Assembly (NCBI GenBank): GCA_020137815.1
Contig: CM035359.1
Coordinates: 7,936,001-8,000,000, forward strand
DNA length: 64,000 bases
Origin: Hormiphora californensis
Taxonomy: Eukaryota > Animalia > Ctenophora
Direction: 5' to 3'
The position numbers and the translations under genes were made by a program. Shown here piece by piece: positions 123 through 42,225 of this stretch (the stretch's first letter is position 1; every line of letters starts with the position of its first letter). The notes under the pieces are model-generated. The model ran no database searches, was not told where the DNA came from, and was given only the letters and a program-made list of their open reading frames with translations.

Positions 123-3100
123 GACCCGAGTGGAGGAAAGGTGGTCAAAGACAACCTACCCTTCCAAGACTGATGACCAGCTTAGATCCCAACTGAGATC
201 TATAACTCAGTCGGGACTCCTTTCACCACAGAAGCTGATGGAAATCAGAACAGCGGCCGTAGCCGACCGTGAAGCAACTGAATCGGCACGACAGGCTGTG
301 GTAGAGGACAACCCACCCCCAGAAACTATTGAACCCCCCACAAACCCAGTGGAAGAGGAAGAGGAAGAGGAAGGGCCATCACCGAACCCTGAAATCGTGG
401 AGCAGTTCAAGAAACTACTCGAGGAACCAAGCTCCATCAAAGTCACCGACTTGAGGCATGTCCCCTGGGGGAAGCTACGAGTGGCAATTGACCGACTCAG
501 CCCGGTAATCAAGTCCTTTGAAACTCCAGACCTTACCACACTGAACACGCTACTGATGGCCGTAGCCCATGTGGTCCGAGAACAGATGGGCGTGAAGGCA
601 CCAAGCGAACCCACCAACATCACCCCCAGAAGGAATAAACAACCTATGTGGCTGCGACGACTCGAAGAGAGTGTCGCCAAGCTTCGCTCAGACCTCTCCA
701 GGCTGACCGAAATGAGCAGAGGTGCCACCCACAAGTTCCAAACTATAGATATTATCTATAGAAGATACCCGCTGCTGCCCAAGAAGGGCTATAAACAAGT
801 TATAGAAGAAGTGAAGCAGAGACTGCTAGCGAAGGCCGGAAAGATTAAGAGATACAAAAAGAAGCAGCAGACATTCGTTGACAACAACCTGTTCCAGAAC
901 AACCAACGAAACTTTTACCGGAAACTGGAGAAACGTGGATCGGACCCCACGCCACTCGATTGTACTCCAGAAGACCAGAACAGGACGCTTAACTTCTGGA
1001 AAAATATCTGGGAAAACGAGGCTGGTCATAACACTGAAGCAGAATGGTTTGACGGAGTCCAGGAGAACTTTGAAACAGTCAGCCAACAGGAAGAGTTTCA
1101 GATCACCACGGAAAGAGTTGCAGCCCGGGTGAAAGGAATGACCAACTGGTCAACCCCAGGTATAGATGGTCTCCACGCCTTCTGGATTAAACACACGACT
1201 TGCCTCCATGGTCGGATAGCTGAGCTACTCAATGACAGTCTCATTACGAGTCAAGTCCCGGCATGGATGACTGAAGGCAGGACCTTCCTCCTGATTAAAG
1301 ACCCCAAGAAGGGTATGTCAAACCCGGGGAACTTTAGACCCATAACCTGCCTTCCGAACCTCTGGAAGCTGTATACAGGAATATTATCAGAGGACATCTA
1401 CCAGCACCTCGATGTAAACGGGCTCTTTCCGGAAGAGCAGAAGGGGTGCCGCAAAAAGAGTCGAGGATGTAAAGAACAACTAGCAATTGACAAACTTATC
1501 CTACGTCATTGCAAACGCTCAAAGTCTTCCTTGTATATGGCTTTCATAGACTACCAGAAGGCATACGACTCGATCCCCCACTCCTGGATCCTTAAGTCAA
1601 TGGAGATGTGCGGGATAAACCCTCAGATAATCCGACTATTCGAGTCATCATTCCAGCAGTGTATTGTCAACATCGTCCAATCTGGGTCAGACTTAGGTAA
1701 AATACACATCAAGAGAGGCCTCTTCCAAGGAGACTCCGTCTCCCCTATTCACTTTATTATAGGCCTGATCCCCCTGTCCATGCTCCTAGCTGCCCAAGGA
1801 AGAGGCTACACCATATCTAACCCAGTAGCTCCAGATCCAGATATTAGTATCAACCACCGCCTATACATGGACGATCTTAAGCTGTATGCCAGCTCGAAAG
1901 AGGACCTTCAGCAGCTCTTAGCAGTCACTGAGAAGTTTAGCACTGACATCAACATGTCCTTTGGTCTATCCAAGTGCGGATAGCCTCATCACAGCAATCA
2001 ACACATGGGCAATACCTGTGATCCGTTACGGTGCCGGAATACTGGACTGGTCCACTTCCGAAGCCAGTGGACTAGACATGATGACTAGGAAGATCCTGAG
2101 AAGAGGAGTCATCAAGAGCAACAGTGACATTGACCGGCTGTATGTTAGCACGAAACTGGGAGGAAGGGGTCTCCAACGGATTGAAGATGTCATTGTGAAG
2201 GAAGAGACAGGACTCGTGACATTCTTCACCAATTCCACGGACCCCAAGATCCGTGCCCTCCACACGGCGATGCAGTCTGAAGATATGCTAACTGGGCCCC
2301 CAGAAGACGCAGAAGCCCTGAAGGAAAGACTACAGACGGAACTTATAGAGAAATGGAAACACAAAGTCTTACATGGAAGATTCCTGAAGCAACTTGAAGA
2401 AGGGGGATGCGACCCTGACGCGACCTGGGCCTGGCTCAACAAAGAGAGCCTCAGCAGATACACCGAAGCCGATATCTTTGCTGCCCAGGATCAAGCCATT
2501 CGCACGAACTGGTTGAGAGCTGCCATACAGAAAGAGAATGAAGTGACTGAGAAGTGCCGGATCTGTAACCAACACAACGAGTCGGTGGAACACATCCTAA
2601 ACGGATGCACAAAACTTGCCAACGGAGACTATAAACTCCGACACGATCGAGTAGCTGCTGCCCTGCACTGGGGAATATGCAAGATTGCAAGGACCACGGA
2701 TTTCCTACCGAATCAAAGTGGTGGAGCCACTATGCAGAGAAAGTGCTCGAGAATGAGAACTGCAAGATCCTCTGGGATTTCCACATTCAGACGGATAACC
2801 CCATCGAGGCATGTAAACCTGACTTGGTCCTTCTAGACAAACTAAAGAAGGAAGCGCTTCTGATCGATGTCGCTGTACCAAAGGACAGGTCAGTGTCGGA
2901 CAGGGAGATGGAGAAGATCGAGAAGTACCAAGAACTACGGAGGGAGCTCACACGAATTTGGGATCTTAAAAAGGCCACGGTCATCCCTATCGTGATCGGA
3001 GCTCTTGGCGGAGTCAGCCCCCGACTGGAGAAGTACCTGACTGCTATAACCCGCCAAGTTTACCCCTCACAGCTCCAAAAGTCGGTACTCTTCAACTCGA

Positions 3101-3534
3101 TGTACACGCTCCGGAAAGTTCTCGACATGTAATCAGCCTCCTGTAACCCCACTAGATGTATTATATTTGTATTAGTTTTCTACCGTTTCACCCGTTCCTG
3201 CTTGCTATTAGACTGCCTTAGATTCCGTTCCAGACGTTTTGTTCCCGATAAGTTGTCTCTTCTTAGGCTCCGTTCCAGATGGTTGGGCTTCTTTCCAGAT
3301 AGTTTAGGAGGTCTTATGCTCCGTCTCCATGAGCTTTAATTCCCCTTTAAATATTTTCCCCTTACTTTAACCCATATGTACATTGTTCAACTTACCCCTA
3401 TGTACATTGTTCTACCTACCTTTACTCCGCAGGCCCTCTGGGCCCTCAGATCCAACAGGATCCGGGCTCGGGGGATTTAACCCTGTTCCCACATGGGACC
3501 TTACGGCCCCATGTGGGAGTGGTGCGTGTAGTGG

Positions 3535-11959: not shown

Positions 11960-12625
11960 AAACATTGGTGACATAGACACCGTGCGCGACCAAGATTGAG
12001 CTCACACACAGGTGTCTGCTCCGCCTCAAAAAGGGTCGTATCTTTCAAGGGATGTTGCACGCGATCCACTGGACCGATTTGCATCCGGTTTCTCGCAAAA
12101 GACTACAAATGATCCTAATATACTGGAAAATACCCGAGAAGTTTGTCTGTCAACAGGAAGTGGGTCAAAATTGACACTGAAGTCAAATCTATATTCTGGC
12201 TTCCGAGAGTTTCTGCACTACGCCCATGCGATTTAGAAGATATTGGGAGATATGTTGATGCAATTAGCATCAGCTATTAATGCCGGGTATTTTCCAGTAC
12301 TCACAAGAGTTCAACCTATCTTCTGATACCCTCAGATTCATTCTAAACCGTCTGGGAGTGGTGCAAAAAGGCTCAGAAGCCAGATTACAGATTTGACTTC
12401 AGTGTCAATTGTGACCCACTTCCTGTTGACAGACAAACTTCTCGGGTATTTTCCAGTATATTAGGATCAATTTGTAGTCTTTTGCGACAAACCGGATGCA
12501 AATCGGTCCAGTGGATCGCGTGCAATTTGGCTTGAAAGACATGACCCTTTTTTAGGGGGCGGAGCGGACACCTATGTGCGAGCTCGATCTCGCACGCACT
12601 AGGTGTCAATGTCACCAAAAGCAAA
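11960..12625. mobile_element. Diverged palindromic MITE-like element
   Basis: About 11990-12200 is the reverse complement of about 12375-12600; termini not resolved. Confidence 0.65.
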
Positions 12626-13196
12626 CAGTCATAATTTTGGGTGATTACACACAGAGAGATGTGACAAAACAAGGTACAAACTAAGCAAAACTACACAAAA
12701 ATAAACTTCTACACCTGTTACACACAGGGAACCCGTTCTGTTAGTTTTAATTAGTGAAAAGAAGACAGGGATAAAGAGAGAGATACGAGAGAGGGAGATT
12801 GGAATTCTTGCAAATAGTGAACAACAAAACATGATAAGGGGATAATTAGTGAGAGAAAGAGGGAGAGTGGGTGTAATTTGACAGACTTTGTGTCGCTTGG
12901 CACTGTGTCAGTCATATTCTGTGTGTTTGTGTGTGAATAAGGTGTAAAAATACTGAGGGGACACTGTTCTTACTTATATCTCGCTACCTCTATATCTGCA
13001 CGCTCCCGCGGAAGCACAGTGCATATTTCAGCGTGCAAATGGTCGCGCACAGCGGGAGTGATATGTGCACTCGCGGTATATATAACTACATAATAACTAT
13101 CATTATCGTATCAGTCGTTATCAGTTTCATATCACATCTCATCGCTCTGACTGTGACCGTTACTTGCTGCAGTTTTCTAGAACAATATATACATCA

Positions 13197-14225
13197 ATGC
13201 CCAATCCAGACCCTCTTTCCTTGATGATGATGAGCCTTGTTGAGAGGAGTAGTCCCGGGCATGCCATGGCCTACAAGGTTGAGGATTTTACTCGATCTGT
13301 GTATGGAGACAAGCGTGAAGATGTTGATCATATTGGTATTTTTGAGCTTGTCTCTAATGGTGAGGAGGTCCCTGGTTTCTCCGCCAGTGATTTTGACACA
13401 CGTCAGTTTACCAAACAGGTTTTGAGTACCTTGTTGGAGTCTGCTTGCAGTTTGCTATTCAAGCAGTGCCTTCCTTACTTCATGCAAACTAGGAAGTTAC
13501 AGTGTTACACGACCAGGTTGCTAAGTTAGAGAAGGAAGCAGAAGAAGAAAAGAAGACTTCAGTTCCCGCCACCTCCACTAGTGCCTTACAGCTGAGTGAA
13601 GAGCTGAATGCTGCCCAGAGGAAGATCATCACCCTCCAGGAGCAAGTGATTGCGCTGAAGGATGATGTCAGATTGGCTGAGTCCAGTGCAGTCACCAAGA
13701 CTGTAGAGAGAGATATGAAGAGCTTTTCTACTGTTCTCTCCCAGAATTGTGCAGTAGCAATGGCACCAAGGAGGATCCAACAAGCTGTGCGGAAAGCTAC
13801 ATCAAGCTCTGTTCCCGAGGACAGGTCCTGTAACCTGATGATATTTGGGTTGCCAGAGGAGTCATCGAAGGAGACTGTTCACTGTTCAGACCTCTGTCAA
13901 AGGCCAAGGAGTTTTGGACCAGTTGAATGAGAAGCCAGTTCTGGACAAGTGTGACAGAGTTGGTAGTCCGACAGCTGGGAAGGTGAGGCCTGTCAGAGTA
14001 ACCCTCAAATCGAGGGAAACTCTGATCGCTATCCTGAGGAAGGCGAAGGAACTAAAGGGTTCTACCGGTGAAATAGAAAAATACTGCAAGGTGTTTCTAG
14101 AGCCTGATAGGACCCCCGAGGAGAGATTGGAAAGGAGAAGAACTCTACAAACCCTGAGTGATTTGAGAGTGTCACATCCTGAGGGACGTTACGTGATAAG
14201 ACGTGGAGTGATTCAGTGTGTGTAG
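13197..14225 (+). pseudogene. LINE ORF1p-like protein (coiled coil + RRM-like + CTD), frameshifted, no ORF2 downstream
   Basis: DRSCNLMIFGLPE...RPVRVTL...ILRKAKELK...VFLEPDRTPEERLERR; collinear homolog of 15341-16390; frameshifts near 13490 and 13885, the latter at a 7-bp ACTGTTC duplication. Confidence 0.8.
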
Positions 14226-15253
14226 AACTCCGGGTGTTGCCTGTTATAGCGGGATTTTCCTGCGTTGGCAAAGCCCTTGATTGGGTGTGTGGAAATATTT
14301 GATTTTCATTGTTTTCCGTACCCTTTCTAAATTTTACCCCGATAAAAAATCAGGCAATTTGCGATTTGCGGGTATCGCACTATAGACGCAGTACCCACGT
14401 ACTAAAGACGCATTATAGACGCACTATAGATGCATTATAGACACATGCAATATAAACGGACTTTCGTAAGCAGCAGTATTATACTAATAGACGCAGTATA
14501 GGCGCATTATAACAGCTATATAAACGCATTTTTATAGACGCGACGCAGTATAGCCGCATTATAGGCGCACTACCCACTACCCAGAATCACCTTTAAATAG
14601 ACTGACTATAGCAGCACTATAAACGCTACATAGACGCATATAGACGCATTATATACGCAAATCGCTTTTTACAGGTCACGCCGCGTCTATAAAAACGTGC
14701 TTTTTTAAGAAGCACTATAGACGTATAACTCAGACGCACGCTGCGATATTTGAGGTGCAGTTGGGCGAACTATAAACGCATTTTTGTCGCATATAAAAGG
14801 AAGCAGTACAGGGTGTCATAACCGGGCTCCTCAGAGTTAGACATAACGAGTAACCGTCACTTTTCAACACAGAGATAAGAGACAGCAGCTTTTCAAACGC
14901 ACGATAGTAGAGGGAGAGAGGGAGGGATACAGAGACAGATCAGACAGAGAGAGATGGACAAAGATCTGAGACAGACGGACAGAGAAAGATGGAGAGAGAT
15001 TAAGATGAAGAAAGAGTGAGACAGAAAGGAAGATAGTAAGCGCGTGTTTGTCCGTCCGTCTTTCTCTGTCCGTTTTTTTCCATCTCTGACCTCTGTCATT
15101 TTCTGTCTCACTCCGTCCCTATCTCACTCTCTCTCTATCCATTTCTCCCTCCCTCCCTCTCTCTCTCCGGCCCTCTCCTTATTTTGCGTCTATATTGCGT
15201 CTTTATCGATTTTGCACACATGCGGCTATAATGCGTCTATACTGCTTCCTTTT

Positions 15254-16690
15254 CACTTCTCACATATCACTTATCAGTTTCGTTTGAAAAGCTCGTTCCT
15301 GATAGTTTTTGATCTTGCACCGTTGTACACGCGTACGAACATGGCCTCCAAGTTGGATCGTGCCTTCACTACCTGGCAACAGGGCGGTCCGGGCAACCGT
15401 CCTTATGGTATGACTTCTGATTACAGTAAGCTAGAGACGTCTATCTTATCTACATTGAGGAGAGTTGCTGGGTACCCTGACCCTAACAAGGAAGGTGGTG
15501 AGTTTGATCCGAATAAGTTGACCAGCAAATACCTCTCAAGTCTAGACACGAACAAGAAAGTACAGCTTCTTTCTGACATGGCTGGTTTGCTTTGGTTTCG
15601 TGCACTTCCTCTTAGTCGATTAGCTAGGAAGGAGTTGTTATCAGCTGACACGAGAGCGAAACAGAATAGTTCTGTGTGCAGTAATGAATCGAAAGAAACG
15701 GTAGAGAAGCTGATGGAGCATATGGACCACACCCGTGACCGCCTTGACAGTGCTACAGATTTGGTATTAGAACGTGATTCCAAGATCATTGAACTGCAAT
15801 CAGAGATCAGTGCCTTGAAAGACTCTATAATATCCATGAAGGACACCATGCTGGAGAAGAGTGTGACTGCTGTACAGACAGTTGTTAAAGACGAGATCCA
15901 GAACTACTCTGCTGTTCTCCAGACAGCTGCTACTGCTGTAAACCAGACCTGCGTAACTGCCCTTGCTCCCAGTAAACTCCGAACAGCAATTGCCAGTGCT
16001 TCAGTTGATCGTAGTAGCAACCTGATGGTATATGGTCTCGCAGAGAGTGATCAGCAAAGTGACAGTACTTTAGTAAAGGAACTATTTGAACAGTTGTCTG
16101 AGGCACCAGTGTTATCAGAGGTGGCACGACTTGGTAAGAGAGGTGGTGAGGGAGTGCGGCCAGTGCGGGTGGTGCTGAGGAACAGAGAAGTTGCCAGAAC
16201 TATTTTGGGGAAATCAGCGACGCTGAAGGACTCAGACCAGTATCAGTCAGTGTTTGTTGCACCAGACAGATCAGTAGAGGAGAGAACTGAGAGACGAGAA
16301 TTAGTTGCTAAACTGAGAGAGAAAAGAGATAATGAACCTGATAAAGTCTGGAGGATTAGAAGAGGTTCTATTGTAGAGAGTGAAACATGAGAAGTGTTGA
16401 GAGAATTTAGTGAGAGTGATGAATAAGATATTGTTTTAGATATGGATTTATTAATGATTTATACTATTGTTTTGGTTTTCAGTTTTGTAAAGACATAGTG
16501 GGGACCAGGGTGGGGTAGCAGGTTCAAAGCACACATAAGACCTAACCGTCTTCGTGCTGACGACCCTGTTACGCCACCCTGAATCCTCACTCAGTTTGGT
16601 CTGTGTGGTTGGTTTGTTTGCTATTATATGTTTATTTCGGCGCAATGCCACTGCCAGCGGCAGTTTTGATTGATTGATTGATTGATTGAT
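15254..16690 (+). mobile_element. ORF1-only non-autonomous non-LTR retroposon
   Basis: Interrupts the host right arm exactly (expected ttcctttt-atat-gcgac); 87-nt 5' UTR, one intact ORF, structured 3' UTR, terminal stem-loop, (TGAT)6 tail, no TSD. Confidence 0.8.
15341..16390 (+). CDS. LINE ORF1p-like protein, 349 aa, intact
   Basis: First ATG inside the element (MASKLD...); heptad coiled coil followed by DRSSNLMVYGLAE...RLGK...RPVRVVL...VFVAPDRSVEERTERRELV, as seen in L1/CR1/L2-type ORF1 RRM-CTD regions. Confidence 0.85.
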   Translation: MASKLDRAFTTWQQGGPGNRPYGMTSDYSKLETSILSTLRRVAGYPDPNKEGGEFDPNKLTSKYLSSLDTNKKVQLLSDMAGLLWFRALPLSRLARKELLSADTRAKQNSSVCSNESKETVEKLMEHMDHTRDRLDSATDLVLERDSKIIELQSEISALKDSIISMKDTMLEKSVTAVQTVVKDEIQNYSAVLQTAATAVNQTCVTALAPSKLRTAIASASVDRSSNLMVYGLAESDQQSDSTLVKELFEQLSEAPVLSEVARLGKRGGEGVRPVRVVLRNREVARTILGKSATLKDSDQYQSVFVAPDRSVEERTERRELVAKLREKRDNEPDKVWRIRRGSIVESET

Positions 16691-17148
16691 GCGACAAAAA
16701 TGCGTTTATATAACGCCCAACTGTGCCTCAAATAACGCACTGTAGCCTGGAGTACGTCTATAGTGCTTCTTTAAAAAGCACGTTTTTTATAGACGCAGCG
16801 TCTATAAAAAGCAATTTGTGTCTATAATGCTTCTATTATGCGTCTATATGCGTCTATGTAGCGTTTATGGTGATGTTATAGTCACTCTATAATGAGTCTA
16901 CAGTGCGTCTATAAGGCGATTTTGGCGTGGTTAGTTCGCTATACTGCGTCGCGTCTATAAAAATGCGTTTATATTACTGTTATAATGCGCCTATACTGCA
17001 TCTATACTGCTGCTTACGAAAGTCCGTCTATATTGTGTGTGTCTATAATGCATCTATAGTGCGTCTATAATGCGTCTATAGTACGTGGATACTGCGTCTA
17101 TAATAGTGCGATGCCCACAAAACGCAAATTGCCTAACTATCACATATC

Positions 17149-17212
17149 ATGTTAGGGAAGATGCTCCTCGTCTGGTTAATATGGAGTACTATCCTGGCTT
17201 CCTTGGCAGCAG
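17149..17212 (+). CDS. Possible first coding exon of a host gene (signal peptide)
   Basis: MLGKMLLVWLIWSTILASLAA followed by a phase-1 donor CAG|GTATAA. Confidence 0.45.
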
Positions 17213-17406
17213 GTATAAAAATTATATGCATTATACTCAATGATTTCATTTGCTGTAAAACTCTTGCACCCTACCAGTACCACGCGTATTCGCCACATAC
17301 CGTATTAGGTATTCAGCCACCGTATTCCCACTACAAGCAGCACTGTCACTAACCTGTTTCCATTCGTCTCTGTCACCCACACTGCCTCATATTTATAACC
17401 TTTCAG

Positions 17407-17490
17407 GGTCCAGTTCTTGTCGCCTCCCTTACCAGCTCTACCATAAGGTGGTCGGATTTCATATAAGCCAGACAAGGACTGAAAACTCAG
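17407..17490 (+). CDS. Possible second exon of the same gene
   Basis: tttcag acceptor, CAG|GTAACA donor, 84 nt, open in phase 1-1 (GSSSCRLPYQLYHKVVGFHISQTRTENS). Confidence 0.4.
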
Positions 17491-17564
17491 GTAACAGTAC
17501 ATTACATGAACTTTTTGAGCAAACCTTGACCTTTACTTCTAAAGATCTCTCGGGAGCGAGGAGC

Positions 17565-17610
<46 letters not shown>

Positions 17611-17642
17611 GAGGATAGGAGAGGACGAGAGGAGAGAGAGAG

Positions 17643-17682
<40 letters not shown>

Positions 17683-17798
17683 CGGGAGAGAGAGAGGAGA
17701 GCGAGAGAGGCGAGAGAGGAGATGCCTGGAGGCTCTATCGTAGCAGCGAGTCGCGATAGAGCGATAGCTCGAGTTCTCTCTCTCGATCTCTCTCTTTG

Positions 17799-17862
<64 letters not shown>

Positions 17863-18610
17863 TTCTTCCACTATACCCCATCGCTGACTATTTTTGTACT
17901 TCCTGCTGTGAAATCAAGGTGACGTCATAGCGTGACGTAACTAGGAACCGGCGATATCGGATTTTTTTTTCGATTCGATCTCGATCTTTTTTGGACGACC
18001 AAAATTTTTCGATTCGATCTCGATTCGATCTTTTGGGGTTCAAAAACTTTCGATTCGATCTCGATTCGATCTTTGAGCGTTCAAAAAATCTCGATTCGAT
18101 CTCGATTCGATCTTTGAGGGTTCGAAAAATCTCGATTCGATCTTTCGGTTTTCAAAAATTTCGATTCGATCTCGATTCGATCTTTGGGGGATCAAAAAAT
18201 ATCGATTCGATCTTTCTGCGATCAAAATTTTTCGATTCGATCTCGATTCGATCTTTGGGGGATCAAAAAATATTGATTCGATCTCGATTCGATTTTTTCC
18301 CTGCCCGGGTGGATGCCCGAAGGGCATCCACCCGGATGATCGTTTTAGCACGTGTGCTAAAAAGATTATAAAGGGTTTAGAAATCTCGGATTTGAAATAG
18401 TAACTCGAGCGTGGTCAAAATCGCGTGTGTCACGGTAGCAGCCTGACAACCGCGATGCTGACAATTTTGAAAAGTTCGTCTGCAAAGTTATTTCACTACG
18501 GACCATGGTGGCGCGCGCTCAAAACTTGCTGCGCGCGCAGCGCTGTTGTTCTCACACCTCGCGCGTTACAGCAGAGCGCCGCTATACTACTAAAGTACTC
18601 CCCAAACTAC

Positions 18611-21600
18611 GGCAATTTCTGATTGCGTCTAGACGGTATACCGTCTGGACGGGTTTCGGTGAAATCAGCTAAAAACGGTACCGAAATTGCTTGAGACGGG
18701 TTATAGACGGTATCAGACGGTCTCTAGACGGGTTATAGACGGTATCAGACGGTGTTGCGACGGTATCAGACGGTCTCTAGACGGTGTCTAGACGGTACCG
18801 TCCCGGCGTCTGGACGGCGTCTGGACGGTGTCTAGCCCTTTAAGGACGAGAAGGATTGGCTCGATAGATTTTTCTAATTTTTCGTTTATAAGTAGATATT
18901 ATTACCACAAACTATCTCGAAAAAGAAATTTGAAGTTTCGACATGTAGTTTTTGCTGGGCCCACTGTGTCATATATGACTCTATCGTCCGTAAGGGAATT
19001 CTAGTAACAAATGTCATTTGTGCAAAAGTATGGGTCCAATAGTCAAATTTTATGCTTTGAGGCAGTCTATAGCTATAATTTCTACAATCTTGAACGGTTT
19101 TTACTAGAAAAATACCCCAAATTCTACATTTTGTATCATATATGACTCTATCGTCCCAATAGGTAAATTCTCCAAAAACATCCATAACTCGGGCTAGAAA
19201 AGGAGCTAAGAGTCAAATCAGGACACTAAACTGAGTAGAATCATCGCATTAATGGGGGTAGAGCACATATTTAGGTCGCTATCTTGCCCCCTAATTGAGA
19301 TAATTGGATAATTAGCCAATCATCTGTCCCGCGCATACTAATAAATGAAACTTTGCTTTGGGAAGGAGTTATGAGGCAAATGGGGGCACTAAAATGTGTA
19401 GAATCATCACATTAGTGGGGTTAGAGCACATATTTAGGTCTCTATCTGGACCCCTAATTGAGATAATTGGATAATTAGCTAATTAGTTGCCCTCCAGCGC
19501 TAAAAAATTAAATTTGGCGGAGTATACAAGAAAAATGGGGGCACTAAATTGTGTAAAATCGTCGCCTTAGTGGGGGCAGAGCACATAGCTGAGTTTCTAT
19601 TCCCGCTCCTAATTGAGATAATTGGATAATTAGCTAATTGACGGTTGCATAATGCCCCCTTTTCACCATATACCGTGGTTTCTGGCTAATCCTGAGGTCT
19701 TTTGTTCAATCTAAGGATTTTTTGGCATCCCTTTACCCCATTTGTATCACCTTTGACTCGTTTTACACAATAATATAGCACTCTATACAACCCTAGACGC
19801 CGACTTCAGCTCTGTACAACCCCTTGCTTCATTCCTAGACCTCTCATACATAAACGCCTTCTACAGATCATCTTTATTTTCGATGGAGTTCATGAGAAGT
19901 TTCCTTAGTGGCAAATGAGATTGTGAGAGTGATGAGGAGAAATAATGTAGGGGGAATCTAAACTGTGTGTCCAATAATAAAATGGGAAACTGTAGTACAT
20001 TAGGGTTCATTCAACGTCTTGTAGGAGCAATAGGATATCCCAAAAAAAATCGGTTAGGAAGGTGTATGGATCTCGAAATTATGAGAGGTCTAGGATTAAG
20101 CAAGAGGGTTCTAAAGAGCTGAAGGCGGTGTCTAGGGTTGTATAGAGTGCTATATTAGTGTGTAAAACGAGTCAAAGGTGATACAAATAGGGTAAAGGGA
20201 TGCCAAAAGATCCTTAGATTGAACAAAAGACCTCAGGATTAGCCAGAAACCACGGTATATGGTGAAAAGGGGGCATTATGCAACCGTCAATTAGCTAATT
20301 ATCCAATTATCTCAATTAGGAGCGGGAATAGAAACTCAGCTATGTGCTCTGCCCCCACTAAGGCGACGATTTTACACAATTTAGTGCCCCCATTTTTCTT
20401 GTATACTCCGCCAAATTTAATTTTTTAGCGCTGGAGGGCAACTAATTAGCTAATTATCCAATTATCTCAATTAGGGGTCCAGATAGAGACCTAAATATGT
20501 GCTCTAACCCCACTAATGTGATGATTCTACACATTTTAGTGCCCCCATTTGCCTCATAACTCCTTCCCAAAGCAAAGTTTCATTTATTAGTATGCGCGGG
20601 ACAGATAATTGGCTAATTATCCAATTATCTCAATTAGGGGGCAAGATAGCGACCTAAATATGTGCTCTACCCCCATTAATGCGATGATTCTACTCAGTTT
20701 AGTGTCCTGATTTGACTCTTAGCTCCTTTTCTAGCCCGAGTTATGGATGTTTTTGGAGAATTTACCTATTGGGACGATAGAGTCATATATGATACAAAAT
20801 GTAGAATTTGGGGTATTTTTCTAGTAAAAACCGTTCAAGATTGTAGAAATTATAGCTATAGACTGCCTCAAAGCATAAAATTTGACTATTGGACCCATAC
20901 TTTTGCACAAATGACATTTGTTACTAGAATTCCCTTACGGACGATAGAGTCATATATGATACAACGACTAAAACGTTAATAACTCATTCAATTTTCAATA
21001 TTTTTTGATGCGGTTTTTTGCATTCGATTTGTTATGTCAAGTAGTTTTATCCCTTCAAAGGATTATTTGTGCCCCTCAAAAACAAAAATTTGAGAGGGGT
21101 TTTTAAAAAAAGGCCTAAATTAGCCTCCCGAGAAGGGCCATAAAAAAAATTCTTCGATTTTCCGAGCAGATTTGGACGTGGTTTTGGGTTCAAAATCCCT
21201 AAAACTAGCTTGTGACAAAAAATTAGCCACCTAGACATCATGTAGCGCCTTCCAGACGGTCTAGAATGGACCGTGTCATATATGACCTATCGCCCTCAAA
21301 GGGCTAGACGGTATCCGTCCGAAGTTGAGACGGCACGTCTGAAAATTGTACCAGACGTTGAGACGGACTTTTAGAACTCCGTCTGTATTTCAGACGGAGT
21401 TTTAAAAGTACGTCTCAACGCAGTCTAAAGGAAAATCGATGAAAGTACCGTCTAGACAACGTCTCAACTGAAACCGGTCAACATACCGTCTAAACAACGT
21501 CTAGACAACGTCTAAACAGAATCTCGCGATTCAGTTTCAAATACCGTCTAGACAACTTCTCCAGCAATTTCGATACGAATACCGTCTAAACAACGTCTAG

Positions 21601-22455
21601 ACAACGTCTTAAGCGAATCCGATACAGATACCGTCTAAACAACGTCTCATAACCGACACTATCTATCACTGATAGTATCAGCCATAGACAGTATATTTGA
21701 AGTTGGGTACGAAAATTACCGGGAGGATAACCCCTTTCCCGTCCCCGAGCATCGCGGTACGACTGTGCTGGTTAAACACATGTGTAATTTTCATTCAATA
21801 GGCACACATCTACCACTAATTCCAACTGGCATGGGTAATCCAGAATGGTCTTCGAAAACGGTCGAGTCTAGACATCATTATTTGAGACGTTGTCTAGACG
21901 TTGTTTAGACGGTATTCTTATCGAAATTGCTGGAGAAGTTGTCTAGACGGTATTTGAAACTGAATCGCGAGATTCTGTTTAGACGTTGTCTAGACGTTGT
22001 TTAGACGGTATGTTGACCGGTTTCAGTTGAGACGTTGTCTAGACGGTACTTTCATCGATTTTCCTTTAGACTGCGTTGAGACGTACTTTTAAAACTCCGT
22101 CTGAAATACAGACGGAGTTCTAAAAGTCCGTCTCAACGTCTGGTACAATTTTCAGACGTGCCGTCTCAACTTCGGACGGATACCGTCTAGACACCGTCCA
22201 GACGCCGTCCAGACGCCGGGACGGTACCGTCTAGACACCGTCTAGAGACCGTCTGATACCGTCGCAACACCGTCTGATACCGTCTATAACCCGTCTAGAG
22301 ACCGTCTGATACCGTCTATAACCCGTCTCAAGCAATTTCGGTACCGTTTTTAGCTGATTTCACCGAAACCCGTCCAGACGGTATACCGTCTAGACGCCGT
22401 CTAGACGGCGTTGCGACGCCGTCTAGACGCCGTATGCGGCAAATCAGAAATTGCC
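18611..22455. mobile_element. Mutator/Foldback-like element with long AGACGG-repeat arms
   Basis: TIR ggcaatttctgatt; perfect 9-bp TSD ccaaactac; empty site seen in the duplicate at about 24653. Confidence 0.88.
18836..21303. mobile_element. piggyBac-like non-autonomous element with CTAG TSD and ~0.9-kb internal inverted arms
   Basis: TIRs ccctttaaggacga / tcgccctcaaaggg; CTAG on both sides; the opposite host arm shows a single CTAG. Confidence 0.78.
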
Positions 22456-22738
22456 CCAAACTACTATGTCCCTCACTCGGGTTTTGTGAAATTTCCCACG
22501 GTCATAACTCCACTCCCTGATGAGATAAAGACTTGAAATTTGTTTTGTAGGAAGAACTCGACATGATCTCCTCACAAAACAAATTTCAAGTCTCTATCTC
22601 ATCAGGGGGTGGAGCTATGGCTGTCTAAAATCCGGTCGCGCGCAGCAAGGGACATAATAGTTTGGGAGGACCTTTAGCGCTCGAATGGATTTAACTTAGT
22701 TAATCTGATCGAAACTAAAAGCTCAGCTCGTTAGTATA

Positions 22739-23030
22739 GGGATCCCTAAAAAAGTTCAGTATTTACACAGCGTTTACACAGTCTTTACACAGTCGTTACA
22801 CCCAGAGCGGCGCGTGCTGCGTTTTGCGGCTTTTTCTAAGAAAATATTGGATTGTGTGCTGCACAATTGAGTAAATTGAGCGCTGCGGCGAAAAAAGTTT
22901 CCAAAAACGCTGCAAATCGAGTGCGAAAGACGCAGTCTTTACACCCAGAGCGGCGTGGGCGCTCTGGGTGTAACGACTGTGTAAAGACTGTGTAAACGCT
23001 GTGTAAATACTGAACTTTTTTAGGGATCCC
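22739..23030. mobile_element. TA-flanked palindromic MITE (GGGATCCCTAAAAAAG TIR)
   Basis: About 70-bp TIRs; copies at 24939-25230 and 37726-38017. Confidence 0.85.
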
Positions 23031-23493
23031 TATGGTGATTGACGGAACGCGAGAAGTTCCTATGCATAGCTTAGTGTCACATAACATTGTAATTAGGCGT
23101 TGGCGACGACGATCATATCACATTGCACGGTATCATCTAGTGTGGGCGGCGCTTAACAGATCTCATCGCTTATCAGTGAATGTGATCGATTTCAGTATTC
23201 GTTGGCAGGGAAACACAGCATTATGAAACATAATGCAATAATAATTCTTGTTCGGGGTTCAAAAAATATCGATTCGATCTCGATTCGATCTTTGGGTGAT
23301 AAAAAACTTTCGATTCGATCTCGATTCGATCTTTTGGGGTTCAAAAAATTTCGATTCGATCTCGATTCGATCTTAAAGGGTTCAAAAAATCTCGATTCGA
23401 TCTTTGGGCGCTCAAAAAATGTCGATTCGATCTTTGGGCTCAAAAAACTACTCGATTCGATCCGATCCGATCTCTCGATCTTTCGATTCGATT

Positions 23494-23783
23494 GGGGGGG
23501 GGGGGTGACACGTAACACTTTGTAACACTTTGTAACATGTGCAGAAAGTTTTTTGTGCACGTTACATGTTACAAAGTGTTACAAAGTGTTACAAAATGTT
23601 ACAAAGTGTTACAAAATGTTACAAAATGGGCATTTTTTGCAACATTTTGCAACATTTTGTAACACTTTGTAACACTTTGTAACACTTTGTAACGCTTGTA
23701 ACACTTTGTAACATGTGCAGAAAATATTTTGTGCACGTTACATGTTACAAAGTGTTACAAAGTGTTACGTGTCACCCCCCCCC
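23494..23783. mobile_element. MITE with G-run termini and TGTAACACTT repeats
   Basis: Inverted ends; absent from the duplicate copy; apparent 7-bp TSD ttcgatt. Confidence 0.75.
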
Positions 23784-23842
23784 TTCGATTCGATATTATC
23801 GCCGGTTCCTAGACGTAACGAAGTTATACCGTCATGGTGGTG

Positions 23843-23912
<70 letters not shown>

Positions 23913-23991
23913 TTCTTCCACTATACCCCATCGCTGACTATTTTTGTACTTCCTGCTGTGAAATCAAGGTGACGTCATAGCGTGACGTAAC

Positions 23992-25755
23992 TAGGAACCG
24001 GCGATATCGGATTTTTTTTTCGATTCGATCTCGATCTTTTTTGGACGACCAAAATTTTTTCGATTCGATCTCGATTCGATCTTTTGGGGTTCAAAAACTT
24101 TCGATTCGATCTCGATTCGATCTTTGAGTGTTCAAAAAATTTCGATTCGATCTCGATTCGATCTTAAAGGGTTCAAAAAATCTCGATTCGATCTTTCGGT
24201 TTTCAAAAATTTCGATTCGATCTCGATTCGATCTTTGGGGGATCAAAAAATATCGATTCGATCTTTCTGCGATCAAAATTTTTCGATTCGATCTCGATTC
24301 GATCTTTGGGGGATCAAAAAATATTGATTCGATCTCGATTCGATATTTTCCCTGCCCGGGTGGATGCCCGAAGGGCATCCACCCGGATGATCGTTTTAGC
24401 ACGTGTGCTAAAAAGATTATAAAGGGTTTAGAAATCTCGGATTTGAAATAGTAACTCGAGCGTGGTCAAAATCGCGTGTGTCACGGTAGCAGCCTGACAA
24501 CCGCGATGCTGACAATTTTGAAAAGTTCGTCCGCAAAGTTATTTCACTACGGACCATGGTGGCGCGCGCTCAAAACTTGCTGCGCGCGCAGCGCTGTTGT
24601 TCTCACACCTCGCGCGTTACAGCAGAGCGCCGCTATACTACTAAAGTACTCCCCAAACTACTATGTCCCTCACTCGGGTTTTGTGAAATTTCCCACGGTC
24701 ATAACTCCACTCCCTGATGAGATAAAGACTTGAAATTTGTTTTGTAGGAAGAACTCGACATGATCTCCTCACAAAACAAATTTCAAGTCTCTATCTCATC
24801 AGGGGGTGGAGCTATGGCTGTCTAAAATCCGGTCGCGCGCAGCAAGGGACATAATAGTTTGGGAGGACCTTTAGCGCTCGAATGGATTTAACTTCTTAGT
24901 TAATCTGATCGAAACTAAAAGCTCAGCTCGTTAGTATAGGGATCCCTAAAAAAGTTCAGTATTTACACAGCGTTTACACAGTCTTTACACAGTCGTTACA
25001 CCCAGAGCGGCGCATGCTGCGTTTTGCGGCTTTTTCTAAGAAAATATTGGATTGTGTGCTGCACAATTGAGTAAATTGAGCGCTGCGGCGAAAAAAGTTT
25101 CCAAAAACGCTGCAAATCGAGTGCGAAAGACGCAGTCTTTACACCCAGAGCGGCGTGGGCGCTCTGGGTGTAACGACTGTGTAAAGACTGTGTAAACGCT
25201 GTGTAAATACTGAACTTTTTTAGGGATCCCTATGGTGATTGACGGAACGCGAGAAGTTCCTATGCATAGCTTAGTGTCACAAAACATTGTAATTAGGCGT
25301 TGGCGACGACGATCATATCACATTGCACGGTATCATCTAGTGTGGGCGGCGCTTAACAGATCTCATCGCTTATCAGTGAATGTGATCGATTTCAGTATTC
25401 GTTGGCAGGGAAACACAGCATTATGAAACATAATGCAATAATAATTCTTGTTCGGGGTTCAAAAAATATCGATTCGATCTCGATTCGATCTTTGGGTGAT
25501 AAAAAACTTTCGATTCGATCTCGATTCGATCTTTTGGGGTTCAAAAACTTTCGATTCGATCTCGATTCGATCTTTGAGTGTTCAAAAAATTTCGATTCGA
25601 TCTCGATTCGATCTTAAAGGGTTCAAAAAATCTCGATTCGATCTTTGGGCGCTCAAAAAATCTCGATTCGATCTTTGGGCTCAAAAAACTACTCGATTCG
25701 ATCCGATCCGATCTCTCGATCTTTCGATTCGATTCGATATTATCGCCGGTTCCTA
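23992..25755. mobile_element. hAT-like TCGAT MITE, copy 2 (tandem duplicate) containing HINE copy 2 (24346-25452)
   Basis: Same TIRs, same TSD gacgtaac and same flanks as 17942-23811. Confidence 0.88.
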
Positions 25756-27176
25756 GACGTAACTAAGTTATACCGTCATGGTGGTGAAGTTATACCATCA
25801 GGCTCACCAGATTAAAATACTGACTAAGTTTTGGTAATGAAATTCCCCCTCTGCGCTAGCTCACGGAGGGGTAATAATATCGCTTGTACGGCGGGAAAAA
25901 AATTCCTGTGTCCAAACTACAAAACAGAAAGTTCTAATTTTTTGAACATACCGAGGAAATTGTCTGAGCTACCATTACATACCGGAATTTTTTGATATTT
26001 TGGCCATTAACACTGTTTTTGTTTTTGGAAAACTATGAAGATGCTGGAATTTGGCTACAAAAACCTTCAGAAATGTGCAAAATGCCATTCCAAAGGTATT
26101 AGAGGTGGATTCATTGATAACTAAGCTATAGTCGAGTCAGAAAAAATTCCACAAGATTGGAATTTTATGCCCATATAAGGAGTTATGCGACACACCTCTG
26201 TTGTTAAACATGTGGTGTAATCGCTACCGGTCGTTACTTTCTGTAGAATTCAGGCCCTGGTTACTATACAAACTAGTACCATACGTTTTAGATAGGTTTT
26301 AGACAAGTTTTCGATAACTTTTTATGAGAAGGTCCCGTAAATTTTCATTTTTAGGTAGGCGGTATTGTCACCCCTATATGCAATAATAGGGGTGACTTCG
26401 TAACCAAGACTAAGTTTGAGATCTGTCTAAAAATGCGTGGAAATATGGTTTTTAGAGGGTGTTTTCAAGGCAAATATAAGGACGTTTATTTTGGCTATTC
26501 GGGGCCTGGCAAGGCCCCCCGACCCGAACATAACCCAATCTCAACCCATCCCCCCTAAAACAACGGGGCCGAGCCGACAGGCCCTCTATTATAACACATG
26601 CCAAAAAGCCATTCGGGGCCTGGCAAGGCCCCCCGACCCGAATATAACCCAAACTCAACCCATCCCCCCTAAAACATCCCCCCTAAAACTAAAACAACGG
26701 GGCCGAGCCGACAGGCCCTTAATACCAGATGAAAAAAAAACCATAAACCATAAAACCATAACCATAGATATTTTTAGAGTGAAAGTTTTGAAGCCCCCTG
26801 AAGTAGTAGAGAGGTGTTCTATGGCTCGTTGGAAAGGTCTCGAGGTCCCGCGACGTATAGGGGGTGTGGCGATGGCCATACCCAAACCTATAAGGGGTAG
26901 GACGTGAAAAACAGTCAAAATAAGGGGTATAAATAACTCGGCAATTAGAAGGAGTAGAAAGGTGTTCTAGGGTGCGTTCGAAAGCTCTCGAGGTCCTAAA
27001 GTAATTGGAATGTAATTGGAAGTAATTACATGTAATTGGAAGTAATTACATGTAATTAAAGGGTAATTACATGTAATTAAAAGGTCTAAATGACCCCAAA
27101 TGACAATTCAGACATATTTAGACGTATTTGGAGGCCCTGAGATAAAACCATAACCATAAACCATAAACCATAGATA

Positions 27177-27712
27177 TTTTTTCCCTGCCCGGGTGGATGC
27201 CCGAAGGGCATCCACCCGGGATGATCTTTTTAGCACGCACGTGCTAAAAAGATCATTCAGGGTTTAGAAATCAGCAGATCGTGGGAGTTAACTAAATGTC
27301 CGTCCGTCACGGACAACGCCTGACAACGCTCGAGTGTGCTCCTTCATCAAATCAAATAACTGTTGTGATGAAACATGATGTCAGGACGCTTATTTCTCAA
27401 ATCTGTGCGCGGCGCTAACTGTGAAAGAAACCACAAAGCCGCGCACGTTTCCTTATAGAAAATCCGTTCGGCGAAGCGTGTTACGTTTAGTTGACGCTGC
27501 TAACTTGCGATGTCGAACTTGGTGGTTGATGAAATGAGTGTTTGGGCTAGGTACTGTCGAATGCTCGTTACTAAGTTTGAATTAGCGATGTGAGAAGTAC
27601 ACATCGCATGCATCTCACATTACATTGTGACCAAGACTTGATATTGTGATAGTGTGATGATGGAGGGCAGGGAAACACCGCATTATGAATACATAATGCA
27701 ATAATTCTTGTT
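27177..27712 (+). mobile_element. HINE/DINE-1-like element, copy 3, different interior
   Basis: Same subTIRs and 3' stem-loop; inserted in the T-run of gatattttt|agagtg, with the empty site seen in sister units. Confidence 0.85.
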
Positions 27713-30700
27713 AGAGTGAAAGTTTTGAAGCCCCCTGAAGTAGTAGAGAGGTGTTCTATGGCTCGTTGGAAAGGTCTCGAGGTCCTGCGACGTATAGGGG
27801 GTGTGGCGATGGCCATACCCAAACCTATAAGGGGTAGGACGCGAAAAACAGTCAAAATAAGGGGTATACAGAACTCGGCCATTAGAAGGAGTAGAAAGGT
27901 GTTCTAGGGTGCGTTCGAAAGCTCTCGAGGTGCTGAAGTAATTTGAATGTAATTGGAAGTAATTACATGTAATTAAAATGTAATTAAAGGGTAATTAAAG
28001 GGTAATTACATGTAATTAAAAGGTCTGCATGATCCCAAATGATAATTTAAACATATTTTGACGTATTTGGAGGCCCTGATAACCATAAAACCATAAAACC
28101 ATAGATATTTTTAGAGTGAAAGTTTTGAAGCCCCCTGAAGTAGTAGAGAGGTGTTCTATGGCTCGTTGGAAAGGTCTCGAGGTCCCGCGACGTATAGGGG
28201 GTGTGGCGATGGCCATACCCAAACCTATAAGGGGTAGGACGCGAAAAACAGTCAAAATAAGGGGTATACAGAACTCGGCAATTAGAAGGAGTAGAAAGGT
28301 GTTCTAGGATGCGTTCGAAAGCTCTCGAGGTGCTGAAGTAATTGGAATGTAATTGGAAGTAATTACATGTAATTAAAATGTAATTACATGTAATTAAAGG
28401 GTAATTACATGTAATTAAAAGGTCTAAATGACAATTCAGACATATTTTGACACATTTGGAGGCCCTGAGACCAGCGGGTGGCAAAATTTAATCCGGTTTC
28501 GGGTCGGCTGACGTAAAAACTCCGCGTTTTGGTCGAGGTAACCATAAACATAACCATAGATATTTTTAGAGTGAAAGTTTTGAAGCCCCCTGAAGTAGTA
28601 GAGAGGTGTTCTATGGCTCGTTGGAAAGGTCTCGAGGTCCCGCGTAGCATAGGGGGTGTGGCGATGGCCATACCCAAACCTATAAGGGGTAGGACGCGAA
28701 AAACAGTCAAAATAAGGGGTATGCTGAACTCGGCAATTAGAAGCAGTAGAATAATGTTCTAGGGTGCGTTCGAAAGCTTTCGAGGTACTGAAGTAATTGG
28801 AATGTAATTGGAAGTAATTACATGTAATTAAAATGTAATTACATGTAATTAAAGGGTAATTACATGTAATTAAAAGGTCTAAATGACCCCAAATGACAAT
28901 TTAGACATATTTTGACATATTTGGAGGCCCTGAGACCAGCGGGTGGCCAAATTTAATCCGGTTTCGGGTCGGCTGACGTAAAAACTCCGCGTTTTGGTCG
29001 AGATAACTTCTAAAGGAAATAAGTTAGACACTTCTCGTTTTTTTGTATCATGTTGGCATTTGTCTGAGCTTCATTTTCATGTATATAATGTATATTTTTC
29101 CTTTTTTTTCTTTTCTGGGTTAGAGTTCGATAAGTAGGGGGTATTTCTGAAATCCACTGTGCCAGTTTTTCGGCTATAACTTTGAACGCCTGCATGAAAT
29201 CAAACTTCGTAAAAATTTCGCTTTGAGAAGACGCAAAGTGTGGTGTATACCAACTCTTATTTTGGTCCACAATTACAGTGGCCACTGGCCAATGAGGAGT
29301 CCTCCCATGCTCCCCTGGGTTGTTTCAGGCGTTCCTCAAGTTGTTGCTGGTACTCCCTGAGTTGTCCCAGACGATCACTGGGACCTCCTGGGTGCTCCCT
29401 TTGCCGTTCTGGGTGCTCCCTAAGTCGTCCCGGGTGCCTCTAGCTCGTCCCAGATGTCCAATGAGGTCATAGGTTAGACATATCAAACACTAGAATCGGT
29501 AATAACAAGATAAAAATGGCCCAGAGTCATTTACAGTACTAAAATGTTTACTAGATGTTGCGAAAACGCAACGATTGGAAACGGTTCAATCATATACAGA
29601 TTACCTACAACTATGGCTGAGGGGAACTCTAATTGAATGGACGCGCAGTACTGGCGTCCCATCAACCGTAAAACTCTAACTGGATGGAAGGAATGATGAA
29701 CAAAACGTGCGACAATGTCCGTGTGTTTGTCATCGTGCGCTACGTAAAGGCCTTTTTTACGAGCTGAATGTGGCAAATCATGTCGCGCCCTGAGTGATGG
29801 CTCCCATTATCAGTTAGATTTTTACAGTTGATGGGCTGCCATTACTGCGCATGCATTCAGTTAGAGTTTTCCCTAATGCAACTATGGCTAAAAGAATCTA
29901 TTAGCCATAGATGTATGCAACTATGGCTAAAAGATTCTATTTGCCATAGATGCATACAACTATGGCTAAAAGAAATGTGATCTGATTAGATTCTATCTCG
30001 ACCAAAACGCGGAGTTTTTACGTCAGCCGACCCGAAACCGGATTAAATTTGGCCACCCGCTGGTCTCAGGGCCTCCAAATATGTCAAAATATGTCTTAAT
30101 TGTCATTTGGGGTCATTTAGACCTTTTAATTACATGTAATTACCCTTTAATTACATGTAATTACTTCCAATTACATGTAATTACTTCCAATTACATTCCA
30201 ATTACTTTAGGACCTCGAGAGCTTTCGAACGCACCCTAGAACACCTTTCTACTCCTTCTGATTGCCGAGTTCTTTATACCCCTTATTTTGACTGTTTTTT
30301 CGCGTCCTACCCCTTATAGGTTTGGGTATGGCCATCGCCACAACTAGGCAATTAGAAGCAGTAGAAAGGTGTTCTAGGGTGCGTTCGAAAGCTCTCGAGG
30401 TGCTGAAGTAATGGGAATGTAATTGGAAGCAATTACATGTAATTAAAATGTAATTACATGTAATTAAAGGGTAATTACATGTAATTAAAAGGTCTAAATG
30501 ACCCAGAATGATAATTTAAACATATTTTGACATATTTGGAGGCCCTGAGACCAACGGGTGGCCAAATTTAATCCGGTTTCGGGTCGGCTGACGTAAAAAC
30601 TCCGCGTTTTGGTCGAGATAAACCATAGATATTTTTAGAGTGAAAGTTTTGAAGCCCCCTGAAGTAGTAGAGAGGTGTTCTATGGCTCGTTGGAAAGGTC

Positions 30701-31193
30701 TCGAGGTCCCGCGACGTATAGGGGGTGTGGCGATGGCCATATCCAAACCTATAAGGGGTAGGACGCGAAAAACAGTCAAAATAAGGGGTATACAGATCTC
30801 GGCAATTAGAAGGAGTATAAAGGTGTTCTAAGGTGCGTTCGAAAGCTCTCGATGTGCTGAAGTAATTGGAATGTAATTGGAAGTAATTACATGTAATTAA
30901 AATGTAATTACATGTAATTAAAGGGTAATTACATGTAATTAAAAGGTCTAAATGACCCAGAATGATAATTTAAACATATTTTGACATATTTGGAGGCCCT
31001 GAGACCAGCGGGTGGCCAAATTTAATCCGGTTTCGGGTAAAAACTCCGCGTTTTGGTCGAGATAACTATAACAACACAAAACGTTTTTACGTTAATTTTA
31101 GGTATGTACTTTAATTTTAGGAAAGTAACTTTTAGGGTGCATTACATTTCGGTAATAAGGTTGGTAATGAAATTACCCCTCCGCGCTATTATA

Positions 31194-31365
31194 CAGTCGA
31201 ACCCCGATTTACCGGGCCCCGATTTACCGGAACCCCGATTTACCGGAAGTAAAATCTTCCCCCGATTTAGGAAATTAACGGTATATCGCCCCGATATACC
31301 GGGCACCCCGATTTACCGGGCAAAACCCTTTCCCCCGAGCATCCCGGTAAATCGGGGTCCGACTG
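31194..31365. mobile_element. Tc1/mariner-pogo-like MITE, 172 bp
   Basis: CAGTCG...CGACTG TIRs, TA TSD, empty site at about 32850; apparently identical copy at 62629-62800. Confidence 0.9.
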
Positions 31366-32960
31366 TAATAGCTATATGCAATATAATAACAGGGGTGACT
31401 TCGTAACCAAGTAATAAGGTAGGATGTTAGGTCTTCCCAAAGTAGGTACCTTCCAAAAGGAATATTCTCGGGATAGTCAAGGTGGTCTTGTATGATAATG
31501 TGTGGGTGAATGGGTTTACTGTTTTGTATAACACTTGAGAACTACAGTATATATTATCTCGACCAAAACGCGGAGTTTTTACGTCAGCCGACCCGAAACC
31601 GGATTAAATTTGGCCACCCGTTGGTCTCAGGGCCTCCAAATATGTCAAAATATGTTTAAATTATCATTCTGGGTCATTTAGACCTTTTAATTACATGTAA
31701 TTACCCTTTAATTACATGTAATTGCTTCCAATTACATTCCCATTACTTCAGCACCTCGAGAGCTTTCGAACGCACCCTAGAACACCTTTCTACTGCTTCT
31801 AATTGCCTAGTTGTGGCGATGGCCATACCCAAACCTATAAGGGGTATAAAGAACTCGGCAATCAGAAGGAGTAGAAAGGTGTTCTAGGGTGCGTTCGAAA
31901 GCTCTCGAGGTCCTAAAGTAATTGGAATGTAATTGGAAGTAATTACATGTAATTGGAAGTAATTACATGTAATTAAAGGGTAATTACATGTAATTAAAAG
32001 GTCTAAATGACCCCAAATGACAATTAAGACATATTTTGACATATTTGGAGGCCCTGAGACCAGCGGGTGGCCAAATTTAATCCGGTTTCGGGTAAAAACT
32101 CCGCGTTTTGGTCGAGATTCGGGGCCTGGCAAGGCCCCCCGACCCGAATATAACCCAAACTCAATCCATCCCCTCTAAAACATCCCCCCTAAAACTAAAA
32201 CAACGGGGCCGAGCCGACAGGCCCTTAATACCAGATGAAAAAAAAACCATAAACCATAACCATAAACCATAACCATAGATATTTTTAGAGTGAAAGTTTT
32301 GAAGCCCCCTGAAGTAGTAGAGAGGTGTTCTATGGCTCGTTGGAAAGGTCTCGAGGTCCCGCGACGTATAGGGGGTGTGGCGATGGCCATACCCAAACCT
32401 ATAAGGGGTAGGACGCGAAAAACAGTCAAAATAAGGGGTATACAGAACTCGGCAATTAGAAGGAGTAGAAAGGTGTTCTAGGGTGCGTTCGAAAGCTCTC
32501 GAGGTGCTGAAGTAATTGGAATGTAATTGGAAGTAATTACATGTAATTAAAATGTAATTACATGTAATTAAAGGGTAATTACATGTAATTAAAAGGTCTA
32601 AATGACCTCAAATGACAATTCAGACATATTTTGACATATTTGGAGGCCCTGAGACCAGCGGGTGGCAAAATTTAATCCGGATTCGGGTCGGCTGACGTAA
32701 AAACTCCGCGTTTTGGTCGAGATAACTATAACAACACAAAACGTTTTTACGTTAATTTTAGGTATGTACTTTAATTTTAGGAAAGTAACTTTTAGGGTGC
32801 CTTACATTTCGGTAATAAGGTTGGTAATGAAATTACCCCTCCGCGCTATTATAATAGCTATATGTAATATAATAACAGGGGTGACTTCGTAACCAAGTAA
32901 TAAGGTAGGATGTTAGGTCTTCCCAAAGTAGGTACCTTCCAAAAGGAATATTCTCGGGAT

Positions 32961-36277: not shown

Positions 36278-36386
36278 TTTTAAGCTTTTTGTTCTTCAGA
36301 CATTGTTCAATGTTTACAAATGCGTTATGGTTTGAAATGTTTAATATGTTTAAAACGTGTTGGTTCGTTTGTATTCAGGCTCCACT

Positions 36387-37667: not shown

Positions 37668-41369
<3,702 letters not shown>

Positions 41370-41969: not shown

Positions 41970-42188
41970 TAAAAAATTATTATAATTGAGATCTGGCAAA
42001 AAGGAATTTCGAAAAATGGTCGAAAGAAATATTGGCTGTGGTGGTATGTTGTTGGGGGGTGGTAATTTTTTTGATGTGTGGGGGTTGGGTGGTTTGTGTT
42101 GTGGGGGGTGTGTTGGGTTTTTTGTTTTGGTTGTGTTTTTTTTTTTGGGGGTTTTTTTTTTTTTTTTGTTTTTTTTTTTTGGGTGTTT

Positions 42189-42221
<33 letters not shown>

Positions 42222-42225
42222 TTTT

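Follow-up and report, generated by a model that had tools for sequence, protein, structure and literature searches.

The 1.44-kb insert at positions 15254–16690 (forward strand) of the window, as we call the whole 64,000-nucleotide stretch of Hormiphora californensis DNA analysed here, is a full-length copy of an ORF1-only non-LTR retroposon. In our assessment this is very probably a young copy from a multi-copy family whose members likely borrow EN and RT in trans from an autonomous LINE, itself likely of the CR1/L2 group. That the family is multi-copy is supported by a second full copy, whose locus is unrelated to this one, by a third 5′ junction, by proteins read through from the element's own untranslated regions and by purifying selection on ORF1. 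Encoding one ORF1p, with no EN or RT up to its 3′ end and with dispersed copies sharing the same ends, the element is an ORF1-present non-autonomous LINE.

The boundaries of the insert can be read against its host, a foldback (MITE-like) element with approximate ends at 14352 and 17134 and no assigned strand, whose right arm contains the insertion. As the first-pass annotation had claimed, the mirror arm fixes these boundaries: with the insert left out, the two arms align at 385 of 482 columns (E = 1e-109), and seven contigs with an empty site in run X12, which represent other copies of the foldback family at a locus different from that of the window insertion, agree by running on from 15253 with the letters of the mirror arm. 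Comparison of the filled and empty sites gives a loss of 2 nt of target and no target duplication, consistent with the earlier description, and none is seen at the second full copy either; the last 2 nt of the insert (16689–16690) are common to element and target and can be assigned to the tail or to the target. The 5′ boundary at 15254 holds to within one base, but could equally be placed at 15255, since the base preceding the shared start is C in two copies and G in two.

The 87-nt leader (15254–15340, forward strand), whose first 26 nt match the second full copy at 25 of 26 positions, contains four tandem initiator-like words and is probably an internal Pol II promoter. One of these words, ATCAGTT at 15273–15279, had been singled out as Inr-like; the word is present, but is probably not the start site, as 20 nt separate it from the 5′ end and the other three words precede it. 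A trans-spliced leader was considered as the source of the 5′ end and rejected, because the 18-nt core of the Hormiphora spliced leader, as given in PMC8527503, has no match in the window at 3 mismatches. In L001, a related metagenomic stretch, the leader opens with a tandem duplication of its first 20 nt (positions 1–45), and one could speculate that such a duplication, or the run of initiator-like words, acts as a buffer against the loss of 5′ bases at each cycle. As to transcripts, the RNA run X13 contains one 182-nt contig on the element at a depth of 2.9, and run X14, which we guess to be RNA, contains three short ones; these contigs do not amount to proof of expression.

Downstream of the leader, ORF1 (15341–16390, forward strand) is an unbroken reading frame of 349 aa, followed on the same strand by a 275-nt 3′ UTR (16391–16665), a terminal stem-loop (16650–16664) at the end of this UTR, and a (TGAT)6 tail (16667–16690), all of which had been recognized at first reading; the UTR has stops in all three frames. 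The tail is the sole array with at least three such units in the window, and the same repeat ends both the second full copy, L002, and the read-through of a related protein, P0024. A search with the three EN/RT proteins of the window against positions 12000–18500, L001 and L002 (tblastn) gave a best E of 0.85, in agreement with the original statement that no trace of EN or RT is present.

The structures in the 3′ UTR qualify the earlier proposal that the terminal stem-loop serves as a cis signal. Together with a small hairpin it occupies 16639–16664 (forward strand) and recurs in L002, where one G-C pair is A-U instead, but the terminal 61 nt alone fold no better than chance (z −0.97), and the first-pass annotation had missed a 112-nt hairpin further upstream, at 16491–16602 on the forward strand. 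This long hairpin is a candidate cis signal: in the window its z is −6.12, with none of 200 shuffles as folded, while the L002 counterpart is weaker (z −1.85, 8 of 200 shuffles). Window and L002 have 30 base pairs of the long hairpin in common, three of them altered on both sides, and for both 3′ structures together the count is 37 common pairs, four with changes on both sides; these paired changes are only suggestive, as they come from two sequences and a fitted structure that 34 of 500 shuffles match equally well. A stem-loop combined with a short tandem-repeat tail and no poly(A) is the 3′ anatomy of the CR1/L2 group, and PMC3747384 describes a stem-loop plus short-repeat tail as the mark of LINEs, UnaL2 among them, whose 3′ recognition is stringent. 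It is this 3′ anatomy alone that points to the CR1/L2 group as the likely clade of the partner. Rfam contains no known RNA family or ribozyme matching the UTR, with one weak miRNA row at E 0.77. The identity of the element as a SINE was rejected, as Rfam gives no small-RNA (Pol III) head and the ORF is under selection.

The encoded protein had been called ORF1p-like, and its predicted structure agrees. The monomer model (mean pLDDT 74.7, pTM 0.34) has a helical N-terminal part, a long helix or coiled coil at about 115–207, an RRM at about 223–311 and a helix-plus-hairpin C-terminal domain (CTD) at about 312–349. At E < 0.001, all 10 of the 10 Foldseek rows for this model are human L1 ORF1p (E 6e-5 to 7e-4). 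By VIA-align, the L1 ORF1p RRM ranked first (Z 10.9, rmsd 2.5, 87 residues) and the first four rows are all L1 ORF1p, with ordinary RRMs at Z 9.3 and below; residues 180–349 align to the chains of the L1 ORF1p trimer with Z 10.4 and rmsd 8.3, and the TM of the whole model is only 0.27. A model of three copies of residues 110–349 as a coiled-coil trimer reached 0.46, compared to 0.00 for the best control, a mark attained by 21 of 30 solved pairs and by none of 23 single chains, with at least 77% contact agreement between runs and a pLDDT of at least 71; this pass may mirror mere likeness to the solved L1 trimers. The match does not extend to sequence: Pfam Transposase_22 (L1 ORF1p) is absent among the matches listed for the window protein and for 24 distant relatives, as well as among the first 25 of 46 families for 26 aligned members, and a profile search of the PDB gave no sequence match to L1 ORF1p (best E 0.15). 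Judged by its modelled fold rather than by its sequence, the protein is a type II ORF1p, with coiled coil, RRM and CTD in that order, and is predicted to form an RNA-binding trimer. Since type II ORF1 is reported from L1, CR1, L2 and R1 elements (PMC4120745), the ORF1 type does not fix the LINE clade. Neighbours in the Atlas outside ctenophores include PHD-bearing clusters, a layout given for CR1 and L2 subgroups in the same source.

The existence of further copies with the same ends, which had been proposed as a check, was borne out by a metagenome scan in which 2 of 318 candidate stretches (L001 and L002) were confirmed. L002 carries a second full copy at 563–2101, which begins at the same first base as the window copy and has a decayed ORF1, no ORF2, and the same hairpin, stem-loop and tail; its flanks have no match to the window at E 1e-3, and the locus is unrelated. 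The complete DNA copies read are thus these two, of which that in L002 has a broken ORF. A third 5′ junction, at 15255 and with a different flank, appears in two of four runs, and no target preference is seen among the three 5′ junctions. L001 contributes the leader and an intact ORF with 85% amino-acid identity to the window protein, and ends early. Among 74 proteins collected, P0024 is an ORF1 C-terminus read through the 3′ UTR into the tail, leaving no room for ORF2, P0067 reads part-way through the same 3′ UTR, and the leader is likewise read through in P0010, P0029 and P0031. As the P0024 clade is only 61–67% identical to the window protein, the direct layout from ORF1 to tail spans a deep split; the window copy itself is young, given that its protein differs from P0001 by a single residue. 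Contigs on the element are deeper than those over its junctions (457 and 860 compared to 99 and 104 in run X1; 59, 157 and 290 compared to 19 and 35 in run X4), which is consistent with many copies and does not represent a copy number.

These copies bear directly on the two contrary outcomes that had been named in advance, a single-copy host gene and a one-off deletion of a LINE, neither of which survives L002 and the other members of the family. An intact ORF under purifying selection, in a copy that sits within a foldback element, might be read as the retrocopy of a domesticated host gene of the L1TD1 type, or as a cargo gene of the foldback DNA element itself. L002 largely refutes both, and we assign them a negligible probability: the foldback family occurs without the insert and the flanks of L002 are unrelated, while the element has no poly(A), no duplication and a microsatellite tail, occurs as many parallel subfamilies, and has left pieces inside unrelated genes in the gene models of Pleurobrachia bachei.

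The constraint on ORF1 is considerable. Between the window and L001 we obtained a dN/dS of 0.18 (bootstrap 0.12–0.26, 347 codons), lowest in the coiled coil and in the RRM-CTD, and a tree of 37 near-full-length rows (290–410 aa, with shorter and fused rows excluded) resolves about ten well-supported intact sublineages, down to 50% identity. Some of this dN/dS signal could have been inherited from autonomous parents, and this would be expected if each subfamily were, like TRE5-A.2, a short-lived derivative of a separate full-length LINE, with selection on ORF1 acting mostly in those parents. Such recurrent internal deletion agrees with the description of ORF1-present non-autonomous LINEs in PMC5786205 as products of this kind, with the 3′ UTR of L001, which parts from that of the window soon after the stop, and with contigs that join other sequence before 16454 and before 16498. 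We nevertheless consider it improbable, as two clades 61–67% identical have the same direct ORF1-to-3′ UTR junction region and no RT remnant, and as the contigs bearing the 30 full-length relatives are all too short to hold a two-ORF LINE. In this count, which omits fragments and models without a contig, 25 of the 30 members lie on contigs below 1.8 kb (median 1480, maximum 4112), a weak hint only, since contigs in the collection are generally short and there is no control set. The preferred reading is that the family would have arisen by a single ancient loss of ORF2 and later diversified as a lineage of its own.

Within this reading, the element would be transcribed by Pol II from its leader, and ORF1p would coat its own RNA in cis, which would account for the retention of the gene. 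The ORF2p of a partner, likely from the CR1/L2 group, would then recognise the 3′ hairpins, and target-primed reverse transcription would begin in the (TGAT)n tail. A tested precedent is found in Dictyostelium, where TRE5-A.2 has no ORF2 and is mobilised in trans, and where loss of ORF1 reduces the activity of tagged elements to 0.5% (PMC3159450). One could instead picture a divided system, in which a LINE lacking ORF1 is supplied with ORF1p in trans by the element and provides RT in exchange, or in which ORF1p is a decoy that limits the partner. Vertebrate L2 lineages without ORF1 are described in PMC13343379, ORF1 is under selection, and a variant spanning 15907–16052, which skips 144 nt and adds 10 other letters (a net, frame-breaking deletion of 134 nt through ORF1), is found in three of four runs at several times the depth of the junctions, as would fit an ORF1p acting in trans. 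This deletion derivative may itself have multiplied, but it could have done so inside a host repeat; a benefit in cis, as reported in PMC3159450, is enough to explain why ORF1 is kept, and our search found no partner LINE in the window. We therefore regard the divided system as very improbable, and the decoy or regulator role originally suggested gains no support beyond the selection on ORF1.

The autonomous LINE with the same 3′ end and TGAT tail that had been anticipated is absent from the 64-kb window, in which the 3′ UTR and tail have no other match. Of 7994 candidates in a search for longer proteins (a weak test), two were hits; both lack EN and RT and are models of the P. bachei type joined to unrelated domains. 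No match came from viral contigs or prokaryote genomes scanned by motif or protein. An APE-RT LINE at 51820–56191 on the reverse strand was tried as a partner and rejected: its cysteine-rich ORF1 is unrelated, and error-rich sequence makes its 3′ end unreadable. The sequence is error-rich below about 52200 and in stretches near 39000–51000, which suggests poor polishing of the assembly.

Searching the window with the ORF1 profile matched three peptides, all within two ORF1 genes, that of the element and a decayed one 1 kb upstream (13197–14227, forward strand). The latter has two frameshifts and 58–65% identity to intact 328-aa relatives of the P0100 cluster, which comprises 14 members on contigs of 0.6–1.6 kb, and is possibly a second ORF1-only family; an ATCAGTT word lies upstream of it, and no tail is visible before the foldback element. 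Similarity between the UTRs of the two is not above that of shuffles (37 and 113 of 300). A further copy of the element, seen in runs X2 and X4, has its start 21 letters after the high-copy repeat (12900–13053) that precedes the second ORF1 gene, by either chance insertion or a common upstream promoter. The window also holds an LTR element at 32962–36834 (reverse strand) with 447-bp LTRs 99.1% identical, a gag-like ORF and an ORF with protease and integrase C-terminal regions; its two ORFs have no RT match, and it is likely a non-autonomous LTR retrotransposon. An RT element in three ORF pieces lies at 238–3132 (forward strand), and the last piece, to judge by its motif, may be a restriction-like endonuclease. 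Dense nests of long inverted repeats and foldback elements, with arms of up to 884 nt at 98%, occur at 18000–33000 and 57900–63400.

A protein search found 26 relatives among 7286 candidates (45–100% identity); those with names are EukProt models, the one with an accession shown being from P. bachei, and for one relative the nearest Atlas clusters come from ctenophores, judged from the few members with a record. These relatives by themselves would make a Pleurobrachia-like comb jelly the likely host. Two EukProt models, P0045 and P0046, have pieces of ORF1 fused to unrelated nuclease and glycosyltransferase domains, probably because insertions in introns were annotated as exons. When 1.84 billion representatives were searched with the profile, 5867 clusters matched at E 0.001, 974 at E 1e-10 and 111 at E 1e-30, and many of the weaker matches may be coiled-coil matches or the ORF1s of ordinary LINEs. 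The 185 new proteins taken from this search have a median length of 290 and a maximum of 362, and the best 150 matches include no protein of EN-RT length. For ten of these clusters of distant relatives, 33 of the 37 listed members of at least 290 aa lie on contigs below 1.9 kb (maximum 3338), again only a hint given the generally short contigs. The wider, very large ctenophore radiation of related ORF1 proteins, found on contigs near 1.4 kb, may consist largely of ORF1-only elements, and one could speculate, with considerable doubt, that there is a phylum-wide ORF1-only radiation of hundreds of lineages, its ORF1p having no autonomous counterpart and its tie to the RT donor being 3′ RNA structure alone. 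If true, this would be the largest and oldest lineage of protein-coding LINE parasites described, and it might form a two-part retrotransposon together with a LINE that lacks ORF1.

With this element, parasites of LINEs that encode only ORF1 reach an early-branching animal phylum and come to include a family whose 3′ end is of the stringent type; it also offers a natural minimal RNA of 1.44 kb with which to probe the need for ORF1p in cis and the 3′ structure seen by a CR1/L2-type RT. Elements without RT escape RT-based annotation and end up as hypothetical proteins of the host or as fused gene models, as in P. bachei; if the wider ORF1 radiation is also ORF1-only, they would constitute a large unannotated fraction of ctenophore genomes. 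Our literature search found no paper describing an ORF1-only element in ctenophores, and the family may be catalogued in Repbase or in subscription journals, which lay outside that search.

Mammals, flies, mosquitoes and slime moulds already provide examples of the ORF1-only way of life, to which the ctenophore case is an addition. HeT-A of Drosophila has a Gag-like ORF and a role at telomeres. It belongs to the Jockey clade, has a zinc-knuckle ORF1, is telomere-specific and is several kb long, features not seen in the present element; the two are alike in that HeT-A, too, is a long-lived ORF1-only lineage that depends on the RT of another element (PMC5786205). The same source lists HeT-A, HAL1 and Ag-Sponge as ORF1-present non-autonomous LINEs of the Jockey, L1 and CR1 clades, and with Dictyostelium added, the first-pass statement that ORF1-only elements are rare was overstated. 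HAL1, the half-L1 of mammals, arose several times (PMC5753468) and resembles our element in encoding only an ORF1p of the coiled coil-RRM-CTD type (PMC5753468, PMC5786205), whereas inserts mobilised by L1 have poly(A) and L1-type duplications (PMC3747384) in place of a stem-loop, (TGAT)n and a 2-nt loss without duplication. The 3′ end finds its closest likeness in UnaSINE with UnaL2, which have a stem-loop and short-repeat tail of the stringent type (PMC3747384); such L2/CR1-dependent SINEs have a small-RNA head and encode no protein, whereas the element has a selected ORF and no small-RNA match in Rfam. TRE5-A.2 likewise keeps ORF1, has ORF2 deleted and carries a structured 3′ UTR, but is a close derivative of a known parent and targets tRNA genes (PMC3159450), whereas the family described here is deeply diversified. 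Ag-Sponge of Anopheles gambiae, of the CR1 clade, differs in host phylum and in having its parent clade assigned and, compared by its description in PMC5786205 only, is like the element in keeping ORF1 without ORF2, a CR1-group origin being the likeliest here too.
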